A DNA stretch of 64,000 bases. It comes from an uncultured Gammaproteobacteria bacterium (GTDB lineage Bacteria; Patescibacteriota; Patescibacteriia; S139-126). Below, piece by piece: positions 5,464 to 37,094 of this stretch. The DNA lies in assembly GCA_964620905.1 (NCBI GenBank), contig CAZUKA010000001.1, positions 158,524-222,523 on the forward strand, in the 5' to 3' direction. The first letter of the stretch is position 1. Each line of letters starts with the position of its first letter. The notes below the pieces were generated by a model. It saw only the letters and a program-made list of their open reading frames with translations. It was not told where the DNA came from and did not search any database. A program made the translations under genes and the position numbers.

Positions 5464-6632
5464 ATAAAAGGCTAGCTAACAACAAAAAAAATTTTTATAA
5501 ATGGTTATTTTATAAAAATGGTCCACATGATCCCGATTATACTTTATTGGTGGTATTGGGATTGATTTTGATATTCGGTTTAGTTTTTTTGGCTTCAGCT
5601 TCGTGGGTTACTTCATTTGAAGCTCATCAAGATCCATATTTTTTGTTGAAAGAGCAATTTTTTAAAGGTATTTTTTTTGGTTTTATTCTATTTTTTATTT
5701 GCAGCCATATTGATTATAATTTTTGGCGAAAAAACGCTTGGTTAATTTTATTGGTGGGGATTGGGTTATTGTTGTTGGTTTTTATTCCAACTATAGGTAA
5801 GACTGTCAATAATGCCCAACGCTGGATAAACCTATTTGGCTTTTCTTTTCAACCTTCAGAGTTTATTAAATTAGCCCTAATAATTTATTTGTCCGCTTGG
5901 TTTGCAAGTAAAAAAAATGAGATAAAAGATTTTTCTAAAGTTTTTATACCTTTTGTTATTATTGTGGCTTTAATCGCTTTTTTGATAATGCTACAACCCG
6001 ACATGGGTACAACTTTACTAGTGGTGGCCATTTGTTTGTCATTATATTTTTTAGCTGGAGGGCAGATTGGTTTATTAGCAGGACTAAGTTTAGTTGGAGG
6101 CGGGCTTTTTTATTTTTTAATTAAAAAAGCAGCTTATCGTGCTAATCGTTTAATGGTTTATTTGAATCCAGAATTGGATCCATTGGGGATTGGTTATCAT
6201 ATTAATCAGGCAATTTTAGCAGTTGGTTCAGGAGGAATATTTGGTCGAGGCCTTGGACGTTCGCGACAAAAATTCAATTATTTGCCAGAAGTTGCTAGTG
6301 ATTCTATTTTTGCCGTGATTGCTGAAGAACTAGGCTTTATTTTTACTTTTTTATTTTTACTTTTTTATTTTTACTTTTTTTATCTAGTTTTCCGTCTAAG
6401 CAAAAATGCGCCTGATGAGTTTTCTCGACTAATGATTTTAGGGGTATTTGTTTTGCTGGTTTGGCAAAGTTTATTAAATATCATGGCAATGTTAGGTTTG
6501 GTTCCTTTAACCGGTGCACCGTTGCCACTAATTTCTTATGGTTCATCATCGATGGTAATTATATTAGCTGGTTTGGGAATTGTGTTTAATATTTCCCAGT
6601 TTACTAAAAATAATAAAGCAAAATTTTTATGA
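5442..6632 (+). CDS. ftsW: SEDS-family peptidoglycan glycosyltransferase FtsW/RodA
   Basis: 396 aa, about 10 TM segments, with FtsW/RodA family motifs (QPSEF.K, PDMGT). Lies between murD and murG as in canonical dcw clusters. Confidence 0.8.
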   Translation: MGKKNKMNKRLANNKKNFYKWLFYKNGPHDPDYTLLVVLGLILIFGLVFLASASWVTSFEAHQDPYFLLKEQFFKGIFFGFILFFICSHIDYNFWRKNAWLILLVGIGLLLLVFIPTIGKTVNNAQRWINLFGFSFQPSEFIKLALIIYLSAWFASKKNEIKDFSKVFIPFVIIVALIAFLIMLQPDMGTTLLVVAICLSLYFLAGGQIGLLAGLSLVGGGLFYFLIKKAAYRANRLMVYLNPELDPLGIGYHINQAILAVGSGGIFGRGLGRSRQKFNYLPEVASDSIFAVIAEELGFIFTFLFLLFYFYFFYLVFRLSKNAPDEFSRLMILGVFVLLVWQSLLNIMAMLGLVPLTGAPLPLISYGSSSMVIILAGLGIVFNISQFTKNNKAKFL

Positions 6633-16634: not shown

Positions 16635-17093
16635 ATGAGAAAGTTACTTACTAAACAAGGACACAAAAAAATAATTGATGAATTGGATTTTTTAAAAAAG
16701 ACTAAAATTCCTGAATTAGCCAAAAGAATTGCAGAAGCCAAAGAACTGGGTGATTTATCTGAAAATGCTGAATATCAAGAAGCTAAGGACGAACAAGGTA
16801 TGGTTGCTAAAAAAATAAATGAATTGGAAGAATTACTTCGTGTCGCTACTATCACCGATAGTGACAATATTAATAAGACTGAGGTTGAAATGGGTAATAC
16901 CATCGTAGTTAGTACTGGAGAAAAAAATATCGAATTTAAGATAGTAAGTTCCAATGAAGTCAATCCAGCGGAAGGAAAAATTTCCAATGAATCACCGCTA
17001 GGACAATCATTTTTAGGTCGTAAAAAGGGCGATTTAGTTGAAGTTGATGTGCCAAAAGGAAAAATAAAATATAAAATAATCGATATTAGATAA
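16635..17093 (+). CDS. greA: Transcription elongation factor GreA
   Basis: 152 aa. N-terminal coiled coil with the acidic-tip region (DLSENAEYQEAKDEQ) and a C-terminal FKBP-like domain. Confidence 0.85.
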   Translation: MRKLLTKQGHKKIIDELDFLKKTKIPELAKRIAEAKELGDLSENAEYQEAKDEQGMVAKKINELEELLRVATITDSDNINKTEVEMGNTIVVSTGEKNIEFKIVSSNEVNPAEGKISNESPLGQSFLGRKKGDLVEVDVPKGKIKYKIIDIR

Positions 17094-17115
17094 TATTTTA
17101 GTTAAATATTGCTCT

Positions 17116-17144
17116 TTGCATAAATAACAAAAAATCAATATAAT
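17116..17144 (+). promoter_or_regulatory. Sigma-70-like promoter upstream of lysS
   Basis: TTGCAT -35, 17-nt spacer, perfect TATAAT -10, ending about 25 nt upstream of the lysS ATG. Sequence pattern only. Confidence 0.4.
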
Positions 17145-17168: not shown

Positions 17169-19280
17169 ATGAACATTCTTGAAAATAACTCGGAAGAATT
17201 TGAGATTAGAAAGAAAAAAATTTTAGCTTTAAAAAAAGCTGGTTTTAATCCTTATCCTGAAAGATTCAGTAAAGAGCATGATATTCGACAACTGTTTGAT
17301 TATGCTAATGAAAACGAAATTTTTGATGTCAAAGAAATAGATAGAAGTGATCAAATTTTTACCACTGCTGGCCGTTTAATGACCTTACGATCTCATGGCA
17401 AAATTACATTTGCTCACTTGCAAGATCATACTGGTAAAGTCCAGCTAGCTTTTTCTCTTAATATTTTATCGGCTGAAAAATATTGTGTTGTTGATTTATT
17501 TGATTTGGGCGATTGGTTGGGTGTTTCTGGTAAAATTTTCCGTACTCATAAAGGAGAAGTGACCTTGATGGTTTTTTCTTTTATTTTTTTAGGTAAAGCT
17601 TTTCGTCAATTGCCTGAGAAATTTCATGGGTTAAAAGATAAGGAAACACTTTATCGACAACGTTATTTGGATTTGATTGTCAATATAGAAACAAGGGACA
17701 GATTCCAAGCTAGATCAAAAATTGTTGATTTTTTACGTCGTTATTTACAGCAGAATAAGTTTGAAGAAGTAGAAACACCTATTTTATCACCTACGGCTTC
17801 CGGGGCAATTGCTAAACCTTTTATTACTCATCACAATGCCTTAGCAGCAGATTTTTATTTACGGATAGCTCCCGAAACGTATTTAAAACGCCTTATTGTT
17901 GGTGGGTATGAGCGAGTATTTGAATTTGCTAAATGTTTTCGAAATGAAGGTATTGACCCTTCCCATTTACAAGAGTTTACCATGTTGGAATATTATGCTG
18001 CTTATTGGAATTGGGAAGATAATATGGTTTTTACAGAAAAAATGATTAGCCAATTGGTCTTATCATTATTTGGCAAATTGAAAGTTAATTTATTTGGACA
18101 AACAATAGATTTTACTCCTCCTTGGCCGATTTTATCATTACGAGAGGCAATTTTAAAAAACACTAAAATAGATATTAATAAATTTAAAACAGCATCTGAA
18201 TTGCGAGTGGCAATTCATCAAGCAAAAATTTCTTTGGAAGAATCTGAAAATTTAGGCATTGGAAATTTGATTGATTTGCTCTATAAAAAAGTTGCAAGAG
18301 AAAAAATAATTCAACCGACTTTTTTAGTGAAACATCCAATTAGTCTATCGCCACTAGCTAGGGCCAATGATGACGATAAAAGAATTGCTGATCGTTTTCA
18401 ATTGTTGGTAAATGGTTGGGAAATTATTAATGCTTATTCTGAACTTGTTGATCCTTTTGAACAAAGGGAAAGATTAATTACGCAAAATAAACTTAAAGAA
18501 GGTGGTGATGAAGAAGCTATGATGATGGATGAAGACTATATTAAAGCAATGGAATATGGTCTGCCTCCGATATCGGGGTGGGGGATGGGAATTGATCGCC
18601 TTTGTACTTTATTTTTTGAACAAGAAAATTTAAAAGATAGTATTTTATTTCCCTTATTGAAAAGTAAAGATCAAATAGAAAAAAAAATTTATGACTCCGA
18701 GATATTGATTTCTGATCCCGGTATAACTTTTGAACAAGCACTAAAAATATTGAACGAATATATTCCTTCGACTGATCCTTTATATAAACATTCCTTAGCG
18801 GTAGAGGCAATTATGCGTTCTTTTGCACGTCATTTTAAACAAAATGAAACAGTTTGGGCAATTGCTGGGTTGTTGCATGATCTTGATTATTTAGAAACCA
18901 AAAACAATTTACGTCTTCACGGTCTTAAAACAGAAGAAATTTTAATTAAACATGGTTTACATCCGGAAATAATTTATGCGATCAAAGCCCACAATTATTT
19001 ACACGAACTTTCCTTATCTACTTTATTGGCAAAAACTTTGTATTCAGTTGAGGAATTATCTGGTTTAATTATTGCTTGTGCTTTGGTTACACCCGAAAAG
19101 TCATTATTGGCGGTTGATTTGGATTTTTTAAAGAAAAAATTTAAACAAAAATCTTTTGCTGCTGGTGTCAATCGATCAATAATTGCTAAGGCTGAAGAAT
19201 ATTTAAATATGAATTTGGATGAGATTATGTCTCTGGCACTCGCTACTTTACAACAAAAAAAAGATTTATTTGATCTTTAA
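17169..19280 (+). CDS. lysS: Lysyl-tRNA synthetase (class II) fused to a C-terminal YqeK-like HD-domain hydrolase
   Basis: 703 aa. Residues 1 to approx. 510 are a complete class II LysRS (OB anticodon domain, motifs 1-3, GLPPISGWGMGIDRL). Residues approx. 515-703 carry H..H, LLHDLDY and IKAHNY motifs that align with the HD-domain Ap4A hydrolase YqeK (H...HD, IRYHT). Confidence 0.85.
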   Translation: MNILENNSEEFEIRKKKILALKKAGFNPYPERFSKEHDIRQLFDYANENEIFDVKEIDRSDQIFTTAGRLMTLRSHGKITFAHLQDHTGKVQLAFSLNILSAEKYCVVDLFDLGDWLGVSGKIFRTHKGEVTLMVFSFIFLGKAFRQLPEKFHGLKDKETLYRQRYLDLIVNIETRDRFQARSKIVDFLRRYLQQNKFEEVETPILSPTASGAIAKPFITHHNALAADFYLRIAPETYLKRLIVGGYERVFEFAKCFRNEGIDPSHLQEFTMLEYYAAYWNWEDNMVFTEKMISQLVLSLFGKLKVNLFGQTIDFTPPWPILSLREAILKNTKIDINKFKTASELRVAIHQAKISLEESENLGIGNLIDLLYKKVAREKIIQPTFLVKHPISLSPLARANDDDKRIADRFQLLVNGWEIINAYSELVDPFEQRERLITQNKLKEGGDEEAMMMDEDYIKAMEYGLPPISGWGMGIDRLCTLFFEQENLKDSILFPLLKSKDQIEKKIYDSEILISDPGITFEQALKILNEYIPSTDPLYKHSLAVEAIMRSFARHFKQNETVWAIAGLLHDLDYLETKNNLRLHGLKTEEILIKHGLHPEIIYAIKAHNYLHELSLSTLLAKTLYSVEELSGLIIACALVTPEKSLLAVDLDFLKKKFKQKSFAAGVNRSIIAKAEEYLNMNLDEIMSLALATLQQKKDLFDL

Positions 19281-19282
19281 AT

Positions 19283-19885
19283 ATGAATAAGTTACTAATA
19301 GCTACACACAATATAGCAAAATTAAATGATTTTAAAGAATTATTAAAAAACTATCCTTGGCAACTTGTTTCACTTGATGATTTAAATATCAAACAAATAG
19401 CCGAGGAGCAAGCTACAAGTTTTGAAGAAAATTCTTTACATAAAGCCAAATTTTATGCCCATCTTTCCGGATTATTAACACTTGCTGATGATAGTGGATT
19501 GGAAATTCCTTATTTAGGTAATTTTCCTGGAGTTAAGACTCGACGTTGGGAAACGGATGAACCTTTGGATGACAATCAGTTGGTAAATAAAATTCTGGAA
19601 AAAATGTCCGGTTTAACCGGTAAAGATCGTTTAGCAAAATTAAAAACAGTCATAACTGTTTATAATCCGAGTAACCAAAATTATTTACAGGCCGAAGGAG
19701 AAATAGTGGGTGAGATAGCAACCCGATTAGCCAAACAGACATTACCTGGTTATCCGATTCGTTCTATTTTTTTTGTTTCTAAAGTTGGTAAATATTATAT
19801 TGAATTCACTAAAGCTGACAGAACAAAATTCAATCATCGGGGTGAGGCGATTAAAAAACTTATTCCCAAAATTAATACTTTATAA
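19283..19885 (+). CDS. rdgB: Non-canonical purine NTP pyrophosphatase (RdgB/Ham1/ITPase family)
   Basis: 200 aa. LIATHNIAKLNDFKELL (ATxNxxKxxE) and LADDSGLE match Ham1 family motifs. Confidence 0.75.
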   Translation: MNKLLIATHNIAKLNDFKELLKNYPWQLVSLDDLNIKQIAEEQATSFEENSLHKAKFYAHLSGLLTLADDSGLEIPYLGNFPGVKTRRWETDEPLDDNQLVNKILEKMSGLTGKDRLAKLKTVITVYNPSNQNYLQAEGEIVGEIATRLAKQTLPGYPIRSIFFVSKVGKYYIEFTKADRTKFNHRGEAIKKLIPKINTL

Positions 19886-19887
19886 AT

Positions 19888-21177
19888 ATGTTAGATTTAA
19901 AATTTATTAAAGAAAATTTAGAACTAGTTGCTCGCAACAATCAGGAACGTAACATAAAAGTAGATTTAAAAAGATTAATTACCTTAGCTGACAAAAAAAA
20001 TTTATTACTGCAAACAGCAGATAGTTGGCGATCAGAAAGAAATAAACTGTCTCGGACTAAACCAACTTCAGAATTAATTGAAAAGTTGAAATTTTTGGGT
20101 AAAAAAATAGCTGAACATGATTCAGAAATTAGGTTAGTAGAGGAAGAAATTATCAGTTTACTTTATCAAATACCTAATATTAGAACAATTGATACACCCG
20201 TCGGTAGCGATGCCCAAAAAAATAAAGTGTTACGTCGAGTAGGGGAAATTCCAAATTTTGACTTTACTCCCAAAGATCACGTTCATTTGGGTAAAATTCA
20301 TGATTTAATTGACACAGAAACTTCAGCCAAAGTAACTGGCGCTAGGTTTAACTATTTAAAAAATCAAGCGGTTATTTTACAATTAGCTCTTATTCGTTAT
20401 GCTTTTGATATTTTAACCAGTAAAGATAAAGTAGCTGAAATAATTAAAACTAATAATTTAAAGTTAGCTCCCCAAGCTTTTAAGCCGGTAATACCACCTT
20501 ATATGATTAAACCGGAAGTTTACGAAAAAATGGCCAGATTAAAATATGGTGATGAAGATAAATATCATTTACCAAAAGATGATCTTTATTTAATTGGCAG
20601 CGCCGAACATACACTCGGACCTATATTTATAGATCAAATTTTGTCAGCCAATGATTTACCACAAAGATTTATTGGATTATCACCGGCTTTCCGTCGCGAA
20701 GCTGGAAGTTATGGTCGTGACACCAAGGGAATTTTACGAGTACACCAATTTGATAAATTGGAAATTGAAATTTTTAGCTTACCAGAAAATTCATTGTTAG
20801 AGCAAGATCTAATTGTTGCTTGTCAAGAATATTTGTTGCAATCATTAAAATTACCTTATCAAGTTGTTTTAATTTGCACTGGTGATATGGGTCTGCCAGA
20901 TGCTAGACAGATTGATATTGAAACCTGGCTACCAGGTCAAAATTTATATCGGGAAACACATACAGCAGACCTGATGACTGATTATCAAGCCAGACGTTTA
21001 AATACGAGAGTTAAAAGAGAGAACGGACAGATAGAATTTATTCATATGAATGATGGTACTGTTTTTGCTATTGGTAGGATGCTAATTGCTATTTTAGAAA
21101 ATTATCAACAAAAGGACGGTTCGATTTTAATCCCTGAAATATTAAGATCCTATACAAGTTTTGATAAAATCTCTTGA
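19888..21177 (+). CDS. serS: Seryl-tRNA synthetase
   Basis: 429 aa. N-terminal coiled-coil arm plus class II core (FRREAGSYGRDTKGILRVHQFDKLE, motif 3 near the C-terminus). Confidence 0.9.
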   Translation: MLDLKFIKENLELVARNNQERNIKVDLKRLITLADKKNLLLQTADSWRSERNKLSRTKPTSELIEKLKFLGKKIAEHDSEIRLVEEEIISLLYQIPNIRTIDTPVGSDAQKNKVLRRVGEIPNFDFTPKDHVHLGKIHDLIDTETSAKVTGARFNYLKNQAVILQLALIRYAFDILTSKDKVAEIIKTNNLKLAPQAFKPVIPPYMIKPEVYEKMARLKYGDEDKYHLPKDDLYLIGSAEHTLGPIFIDQILSANDLPQRFIGLSPAFRREAGSYGRDTKGILRVHQFDKLEIEIFSLPENSLLEQDLIVACQEYLLQSLKLPYQVVLICTGDMGLPDARQIDIETWLPGQNLYRETHTADLMTDYQARRLNTRVKRENGQIEFIHMNDGTVFAIGRMLIAILENYQQKDGSILIPEILRSYTSFDKIS

Positions 21178-37020: not shown

Positions 37021-37094
37021 TGGCTGCGGGACTTGGATTCGAACCAAGATTACCAGGGCCAGAACCTGGCGTCCTACCATTAGACGATCCCGCA
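37021..37094 (-). tRNA. tRNA-Gln (anticodon CUG)
   Basis: Minus-strand sequence TGCGGGATCGTCTAATGGTAGGACGCCAGGTTCTGGCCCTGGTAATCTTGGTTCGAATCCAAGTCCCGCAGCCA folds as a cloverleaf. The 7-bp acceptor stem has a U1:A72 pair and a G73 discriminator, as is typical of bacterial tRNA-Gln. The anticodon loop is TTCTGGC. The T-arm is CTTGG/TTCGAAT/CCAAG, and CCA is encoded. Confidence 0.8.

Follow-up and report, generated by a model that had tools for sequence, protein, structure and literature searches.

The lysyl-tRNA synthetase (LysRS) of an uncultured bacterium, deposited as a gammaproteobacterium and placed by GTDB in the Patescibacteriota, carries an HD-type phosphohydrolase domain fused to its C-terminus. 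The fusion is encoded by one open reading frame (ORF) in a stretch of 64,000 nucleotides (GenBank assembly GCA_964620905.1, contig CAZUKA010000001.1, positions 158,524 to 222,523 of the forward strand), which was analysed as a whole and is called the window below. The 703-aa protein consists of a class II LysRS (residues 8–499), a flexible linker of ~20 residues and a 183-residue HD domain, which we assign, from its profile matches and residue pattern, to a distinct and uncharacterised HDIG family that has a YqeK-type metal centre but is not a YqeK. Given that the same join occurs in many relatives, the two activities probably work together. The reading that we favour, with a probability of roughly 0.4, is that the tethered HD hydrolase clears LysRS side products of the diadenosine tetraphosphate (Ap4A) or dinucleoside tetraphosphate (Np4N) type, or related adenylylated compounds.

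The LysRS-HD fusion and its recurrence

The synthetase part was matched by the NCBIfam model of bacterial LysS, TIGR00499 (lysS_bact), over residues 8–499 with 547 bits (cut-off 427.6), which places it among the full-length LysS proteins, and by NF001756 with 587.8 bits (cut-off 468). Motif 2 reads FRNEG (257–261) and motif 3 GMGIDR (472–477), the codons of both having been checked, and R258, N259, E260, G261, G472 and R477 are invariant in 25 full-length fused homologues. The fusion ORF is the sole LysRS within the 64-kb window and the greA-lysS-serS synteny has been kept, both of which fit the indication from its sequence that this part is the complete, intact housekeeping class II lysyl-tRNA synthetase of the organism. 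A class II LysRS is also a module of the bifunctional protein LysX (MprF-LysRS, NF002821), but there the Lys-tRNA is used to lysinylate lipid, whereas the added module here is a C-terminal phosphohydrolase. An earlier reading of the bare sequence (hereafter the sequence-only reading) had described a LysRS of normal length followed by an extra C-terminal stretch bearing an HD domain. This was borne out by the Pfam and NCBIfam matches, with ~190–200 extra residues, and the 703-aa frame runs uninterrupted, with no frameshift near position 18690.

A sequencing or assembly error joining lysS to a separate downstream gene, which the sequence-only reading had itself raised, would give the same picture. 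In the related locus L061 the two genes abut (stop codon of lysS at 5989–5991, ATG of the HD gene at 5992), and the loss of one stop codon would fuse them. However, an identical 703-aa protein was called on an independent Logan assembly (SRR10807893), and the LysRS-HD junction is kept at 36–66% identity in dozens of contigs from JGI, ENA, NCBI and Logan. The junction-spanning residues 401–703 were used in an exhaustive HMMER search against 1.84 billion cluster representatives. Among the best 150 matches, which were examined, ~50 distinct clusters (50% identity) have LysRS and HD on one chain, many of them at full length (~680–735 aa); this count is based on 49 further fused database proteins, two of which are extra members of clusters already counted. 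The independent copy and the fused clusters rule out a frameshift or assembly error at the junction, and the chance that the fusion is an artefact is negligible. The lysS-HD pairing is under purifying selection in many lineages.

Besides the window, the fusion is present in the loci L001, L083 and L084. L001 (JGI 3300037810) is a syntenic relative, ~65% identical, with the same in-frame junction, and together with the clusters from the search it answers the question, also raised by the sequence-only reading, of whether relatives share the fusion. The fusion carriers that have names are metagenome-assembled genomes of Patescibacteria, Parcubacteria and Peregrinibacteria, in which the protein is labelled only "lysine--tRNA ligase". 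One protein, P0157, has the reverse order, HD (residues 1–179) followed by LysRS (263–712), and was found in two separate Logan assemblies (L088:5001-7148 and L089:4327-6474); it points to an independent fusion event, and the comparison of sequences indicates that the fusion has been formed more than once, in both domain orders. In L083:5206-7380 (JGI 3300023214) the same fusion was called as two genes owing to an in-frame TGA in 'FAK*FRNEG', in the motif 2 region, at a position occupied by Cys in the window protein. The fusion thus seems also to be carried by a lineage in which UGA is a sense codon (code 25 or 4, Gracilibacteria/Absconditabacteria-like). The lysS of L001 shows a one-base frameshift at 1000-1030 ('ENFDI*', then 'GLGNLIDALYKK' in the other frame), well upstream of the HD junction, which reflects either an error in the sequencing or a gene that is truly broken.

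The architecture is already in public databases, annotated solely as LysRS, and both aminoacyl-tRNA synthetases (aaRS) with appended domains and HD domains fused to adenylate-forming enzymes are known. Since the public labels say no more than "lysine--tRNA ligase" or "HDIG domain-containing protein", current annotation does not reveal that the two are linked. Full-text literature searches returned no description of a LysRS-HD fusion, of this HD family, of COG2316/K06951 or of an HD gene with rnr/smpB.

In AlphaFold2 (AF2) models, the HD domain alone was predicted as an all-alpha HD fold of ten helices, with a predicted local distance difference test score (pLDDT) of 93.3 and a predicted template-modelling score (pTM) of 0.89. 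The full chain gave a pLDDT of 90.2 and a pTM of 0.68, with a low-confidence linker at residues 505–510. The lower pTM and the poorly predicted linker point to two well-folded modules on a flexible tether, without a confident fixed interface in the model. Among the homologues the linker measures 19–91 residues, and 170–405 residues where further domains have been inserted. The latter are found in longer proteins of 863–1072 aa and in the partial P0138 (491 aa). The insert consists of a PheT-like tRNA_bind domain plus B3/4 in P0134 (L090:709-3927, L091), of B3/4 alone in P0154, of DUF2000 in P0143 and P0138, of a HAD domain in P0136 and of a Nudix domain in P0146. DUF2000 is a domain that probably has a PTH2-like fold. 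This variety suggests that, in minimal genomes, the C-terminus of LysRS gathers accessory quality-control modules of hydrolase or editing-like type.

The HD domain and its stand-alone relatives

The Pfam HD model (PF01966) matched residues 539–615 with an E value of 1.2e-8 and 35.6 bits (gathering cut-off 22), as the sequence-only reading had anticipated, and the NCBIfam HDIG model TIGR00277 matched with 36–39 bits (cut-off 27.6); 30 of 30 aligned family members match the latter too. The literal HDIG(K) motif with its phosphate-binding lysine is not kept, the residues being HDLDY here and HD(I/L)D(Y/W) in the family consensus. A hidden Markov model (HMM) of the stand-alone family matched the fusion ORF with an E value of 1.9e-79. 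The six two-metal ligands of GtYqeK (H21, H50, D51, H83, H109 and D127) align to H541, H570, D571, H584, H608 and E628. When 49 fused and 74 stand-alone HD domains were compared, H570, D571, H584, H608, F663 and R669 were 100% conserved and D573 was nearly invariant; H541 was kept in 49 of 49 fused domains and in 73 of 74 stand-alone ones, the remaining one having a gap. F663 and R669 belong to an FAxGxxR motif that lies outside the region alignable to YqeK. Column 628 alternates between D and E (D29:E20 in the fused and D55:E17 in the stand-alone domains, with two exceptions among the latter). The sequence-only reading had reported the replacement of one conserved aspartate by glutamate, which is real (E628), and had taken it to mean that the hydrolase may be tuned or inactive. 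It is not a sign of attenuation, because D or E is normal at this column in both groups, and inactivation through this change is ruled out by the alternation across the family. The presence of all six ligands indicates, at the level of residues, that the HD domain is a catalytically intact two-metal hydrolase. The HD domains are acidic, with a median isoelectric point (pI) of 5.6–5.9 and a net charge of about -5.

Searching the predicted structure against the PDB with Foldseek gave only weak HD-superfamily matches (E ~1e-2, template-modelling (TM) scores 0.4–0.57), which did not single out a clear winner. Nearly all of the matches listed were HD proteins, among them 2pq7, YqeK, PgpH, YpgQ, small alarmone hydrolases, dNTPases and the HD domain of the GlyRS beta subunit; the last gave the top TM-scores (0.55–0.57), itself a weak match at E ~1e-2.

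A search with the C-terminal domain returned 2,458 homologues; of the 120 that were listed, almost every one is a stand-alone protein of ~184 aa that bears the label "HDIG domain-containing protein". In a scan of GTDB species genomes the family was found in Bacillota, Thermotogota, Caldiserica, Omnitrophota, Patescibacteria and other phyla. Across loci of Bacillota and related genomes (L004-L077; e.g. L004:6001-9217, L010, L054 and L057) the stand-alone HD gene is part of a conserved cluster, in the order H+-pyrophosphatase (hppA), 4HBT thioesterase or alpha/beta-hydrolase esterase, HD, rnr (RNase R) and smpB. Nearby genes among 80 family loci were smpB in 28, rnr in 20 and hppA in 20. Two variants of the family protein were also observed. 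A clade of ~250–280 aa (P0221, P0226, P0231, P0242, P0244, P0252, P0253 and P0256) is extended at the N-terminus by ~80 aa for which Pfam gave no match, and P0227 (555 aa) has a PQQ/beta-propeller region joined to the family HD domain.

Candidate substrates of the fused domain

The main and classic producer of Ap4A is LysRS, and it is a matter of continuing debate whether the compound serves as a signal or is a by-product. The reading that we favour is that the HD domain would hydrolyse a phosphoanhydride that arises as a product in the active site of LysRS. The likeliest substrates would be diadenosine or other dinucleoside polyphosphates (Ap4A, Ap3A, Ap4N), formed from lysyl-adenylate and a nucleotide instead of tRNA, and the tethered hydrolase would turn these side products back into usable nucleotides where they are made, a role of metabolite damage control in a minimal genome. 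The chemistry would resemble that of YqeK, whereas the specificity may differ because the substrate-binding residues differ from those of YqeK. That the maker and the breaker of Ap4A share one chain, as the sequence-only reading had proposed, is thus a reasonable hypothesis, one that rests on the recurrent fusion and on adjacency, not on homology. The linkage to LysRS, the adjacent rdgB, the acidity of the domain and its Nudix and HAD partners speak for small nucleotides as substrates; in particular, the pI of 5.6–5.9 is easier to reconcile with a small-molecule substrate than with extended RNA binding.

The best functional analogy is the mycoplasma fusion NadD-YqeK (PRK07152), in which an ATP-using adenylyl-transfer enzyme is likewise combined with an HD diphosphatase in a minimal genome, and the fused HD domain proofreads, removes erroneous products of NadD and helps to sanitise the nucleotide pool (PMC9426524). 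There, however, the partner is NadD instead of LysRS, the HD domain is of another subfamily and the proofreading has been demonstrated, whereas the LysRS fusion is known from sequence. A recurrent fusion, in two orders, of LysRS with an intact phosphohydrolase offers a concrete handle on the question of Ap4A as signal or by-product, and it predicts a substrate for a large uncharacterised family (>2,400 homologues). As a lead on the handling of Ap4A, the protein would put synthesis and breakdown on a single polypeptide, where the two can be followed side by side and uncoupled by point mutations.

Several observations weigh against this reading, most of them concerning the relation of the domain to YqeK, to which the sequence-only reading had assigned it as "YqeK-like" and of the Ap4A hydrolase type. 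In a family-profile search the nearest solved relatives are YqeK Ap4A hydrolases (8jja, E 3.4e-7; 8wmy, 6.3e-7; then 2ogi, 3ccg and 2o08), and the motif pairings that had been drawn with YqeK (LLHD, AHN with HT, VEEL with ADYI) agree with the HMM alignments to the solved YqeK chains. YqeK (COG1713, TIGR00488), the symmetrical Ap4A/Ap4N hydrolase of Gram-positives, is also an all-helical HD fold of ~185–200 aa, with the same six two-metal ligands (H, HD, H, H, D/E) in the same order, and it, too, occurs in fusion with an adenylate-forming enzyme (NadD). However, the YqeK equivalog model TIGR00488 gave 13.7–13.8 bits (E 0.04) against a cut-off of 70.15, and several other HDIG families are by their E values at least as close to the domain as YqeK is. 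With 30 members, these were 7e-12 for TIGR00295, 3.6e-11 for PRK12703 (an aTrm56-HD fusion), 1e-10 for RNase Y, 1.5e-10 for DVU_1551, 4.8e-8 for the NadD-YqeK fusion and, at best, 1.7e-8 for YqeK. A match to a different HD subfamily, which the sequence-only reading had named as a finding that would refute it, is borne out in so far as HDIG, RNase Y, aTrm56-HD and other families match as well or better, although YqeK is still the nearest solved one. A single-sequence search of PDB sequences with the HD domain gave chance-level matches only.

The family profile aligns to YqeK only over positions 7–132 of 184, and the C-terminal third, which has its own FAxGxxR motif, is left without an alignment. 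In YqeK, R18 and R133 contact the polyphosphate and F135, a stacking residue, and F163 lie around the second adenosine (PMC13627108), while the lysine of the HDxxK motif (K62) is a further substrate contact (PMC11857287). In this family, with HD(L/I)D(Y/W) in place of HDxxK, the positions of R18, the HDxxK lysine, R133 and F135 are taken by N/D536, Y/W574, L633 and I/V635; F163 falls in the unaligned third, and the residues of the adenine pocket (L164, Y172 and T175) lie beyond the aligned part, hence they are not placeable. The gene context differs as well, being nadD in the case of YqeK and lysS or rnr-smpB here. The model score and the unmatched substrate contacts rule out membership of YqeK, and the family label of the sequence-only reading was dropped. 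Also on this side of the balance, the hppA-esterase-HD-rnr-smpB cluster of Bacillota contains no aaRS, and the Bacillota that bear it presumably hold a true YqeK too. The closest stand-alone relatives have no adjacent lysS, from which it follows that the HD domain can work unjoined to LysRS. Finally, the full-text literature searches turned up no biochemical data for any family member.

The HD domain could instead act on the ends of RNA or tRNA, removing 2',3'-cyclic or 3'-phosphates or decapping Np4 ends, with LysRS as a tRNA-binding platform; damaged 3' ends of tRNA(Lys), tmRNA or mRNA could in this way be made fit for aminoacylation, repair or degradation. We regard this as less likely than the reading that we favour but as a serious competitor to it, and a number of observations agree with it. 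The domain matches the HDIG model, a type found in CCA-adding enzymes, and the HD domain of E. coli Cca (class II CCA-adding), attached to a tRNA 3'-end enzyme, has 2',3'-cyclic phosphodiesterase, 2'-nucleotidase and phosphatase activities; in contrast to that domain, the HDIGK motif is not kept here and the enzyme partner is another one. The sub-threshold relatives include RNase Y and an HD domain fused to the tRNA methyltransferase aTrm56. Besides Ap4N, Ap4A-capped RNA is also cleaved by YqeK-type HD enzymes (PMC13627108). The GlyRS-beta HD, which contacts the tRNA acceptor arm, is the top fold match (PMC8464048), but the fold matches are all weak. The position of smpB and rnr just downstream in many family loci, together with the PheT-like tRNA-binding, B3/4 editing-type or DUF2000 inserts of some fusions, points to RNA or tRNA. 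The rnr-smpB adjacency is nevertheless weak evidence, because an unrelated esterase shares the same cluster, and the inserted tRNA modules could serve LysRS and not HD. The net charge of about -5 speaks against RNA as well, and this explanation gives no lysine-specific reason for the fusion.

It is unlikely that the domain is a general hydrolase of the nucleotide pool or of alarmones (non-canonical NTPs, (p)ppGpp/(p)ppApp, dNTPs), whose chemistry would be unrelated to LysRS and whose fusion would have resulted incidentally from the compaction of operons in very small genomes. The rdgB gene directly downstream, the Nudix or HAD domains co-fused in some relatives and the presence of small alarmone hydrolases, YpgQ and dNTPases among the fold matches are in keeping with such a role, and so are the absence of an adjacent lysS in the closest stand-alone relatives and the interleaving of fused and unfused forms in a rough neighbour-joining tree. 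On the other hand, the fusion exists in both orders and in ~50 diverged clusters with the catalytic residues strictly kept, which is an argument that the physical link to LysRS specifically has been selected; serS, greA and rdgB, although just as close by, were not seen fused to HD. A non-catalytic module for tRNA binding or allostery, as in GlyRS beta, is highly improbable. An HD fold inside an aaRS has a precedent there (PDB 7eiv), and it is the best match by TM-score; in the E. coli GlyRS-beta HD, however, S393/K394 replace the His-Asp doublet and the domain has a role in binding the tRNA acceptor arm (PMC8464048), whereas the doublet and every other metal ligand are kept here. A degenerate HD of the GlyRS-beta kind is thereby ruled out, and the non-catalytic explanation is rejected because all metal ligands are invariant across the 123 domains.

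A broader proposal, which we put forward as doubtful, is that the ~184-aa HDIG family is a new class of Np4N/Np4-cap scavenger hydrolases, distinct from YqeK, ApaH and the Nudix enzymes. The LysRS-fused form would destroy dinucleoside polyphosphates where they are made, and the rnr-smpB-linked form would dispose of the cap-containing remnants of 3'-to-5' RNA decay. If this were true, the rnr-smpB-linked form would correspond, in bacteria, to the scavenger decapping enzyme of eukaryotes, and the LysRS fusions would show that these bacteria handle Ap4A not as a signal but as damage, to be cleared at its site of origin.

Gene neighbourhood and origin of the fusion

The coordinates of the fusion gene, its domains and its neighbours are collected in Table 1. 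In three Patescibacteria genomes (L061, L028 and L034) lysS and HD stand next to each other as separate genes; which of greA, rdgB and serS flank them varies, with the full set in L061 only (greA-lysS-HD-rdgB-serS), and rdgB occupies the same position in L001, L028 and L061 as in the window. The window neighbours greA, rdgB and serS are the same as in the unfused genomes, and gene order therefore indicates that the fusion arose when a pair of neighbours within a conserved gene cluster of Patescibacteria was joined. The closest stand-alone relatives, P0006 and P0004 (51–55% identical), lie in the order greA-HD-serS with no lysS between (L086:4445-6904 and L087:2973-5276). The L086 locus also has no rdgB, and L087 ends in an unidentified downstream gene. 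The N-terminus of both proteins (MILSREQVGINREQA) resembles the linker of the window protein. The greA-HD-serS state could have come about if the LysRS part was secondarily lost or moved elsewhere, possibly with another type of LysRS in its place.

Table 1. Features of the fusion gene and its surroundings in the window
Feature	Position	Strand	Evidence
greA, conserved upstream neighbour	16635..17093	+	tblastn synteny with L061 and L034; Pfam GreA_GreB in L086 and L087
Promoter-like site TTTGCA-18-TATAAT (10/12) in the 75-nt greA-lysS spacer	17115..17144	+	Consensus match only; such sites are not enriched over shuffles
LysRS-HD fusion ORF, complete, 703 aa	17169..19280 (including stop codon)	+	ORF call, Pfam, NCBIfam, matching independent assembly
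OB-fold anticodon-binding domain, residues 65-138	17361..17582	+	Pfam PF01336 (tRNA_anti-codon), E 1.2e-12
Class II D/K/N catalytic core, residues 158-496	17640..18656	+	Pfam PF00152 (tRNA-synt_2), E 5.9e-81
Linker, about residues 497-520, KSKDQIEKKIYDSEILISDPG, predicted flexible	18657..18728	+	AF2 pLDDT < 50 at residues 505-510
HD (HDIG-type) phosphohydrolase domain, residues 521-703, predicted all-helical	18729..19277	+	Pfam, NCBIfam, AF2, family HMM
His541, putative metal ligand, equivalent to YqeK H21/H29	18789..18791	+	Alignment to YqeK
His570-Asp571-Leu-Asp573, HD doublet and family-specific near-invariant Asp; no Lys at +3	18876..18887	+	Alignment
His584, putative ligand of the second metal site, 100% conserved	18918..18920	+	Alignment
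His608, putative ligand of the second metal site, 100% conserved (AHN, YHT in YqeK)	18990..18992	+	Alignment to YqeK
Glu628, putative carboxylate ligand aligned with YqeK D127/D135	19050..19052	+	Alignment
C-terminal family motif F663-A664-x-G-x-x-R669, with the basic run KKKFKQK just before	19155..19175	+	Alignment
rdgB/Ham1-type XTP/dITP diphosphatase	19283..19885	+	NCBIfam PRK14822, E 3.4e-39, 134.2 bits, below the curated cut-off of 234
serS, conserved downstream neighbour	19888..21177	+	Synteny in relatives

The gene rdgB begins 3 nt past the stop codon of the fusion gene, and serS 3 nt past that of rdgB. Because of this tight packing, and because there is no terminator-like site on the + strand between the genes (19280-19888), the fusion gene, rdgB and serS are probably co-transcribed. 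Within the fusion gene, the junction region contains no internal terminator and no clear internal promoter. No regulatory RNA was detected upstream of lysS at the Rfam gathering thresholds, and the family HMM found no second member of the HD family within the 64-kb window.

The only RNA gene in the 64 kb is a tRNA-Gln(CTG) at 37021-37094 on the - strand; no other Rfam family was detected at the gathering threshold. Most genes up to ~22 kb are on the + strand, and most of those from ~31 kb onwards are on the - strand. The cumulative GC skew over the window reaches its maximum at ~20–24 kb, passes through a plateau and falls from ~34 kb. The two arms of the window converge in the way expected near a replication terminus.

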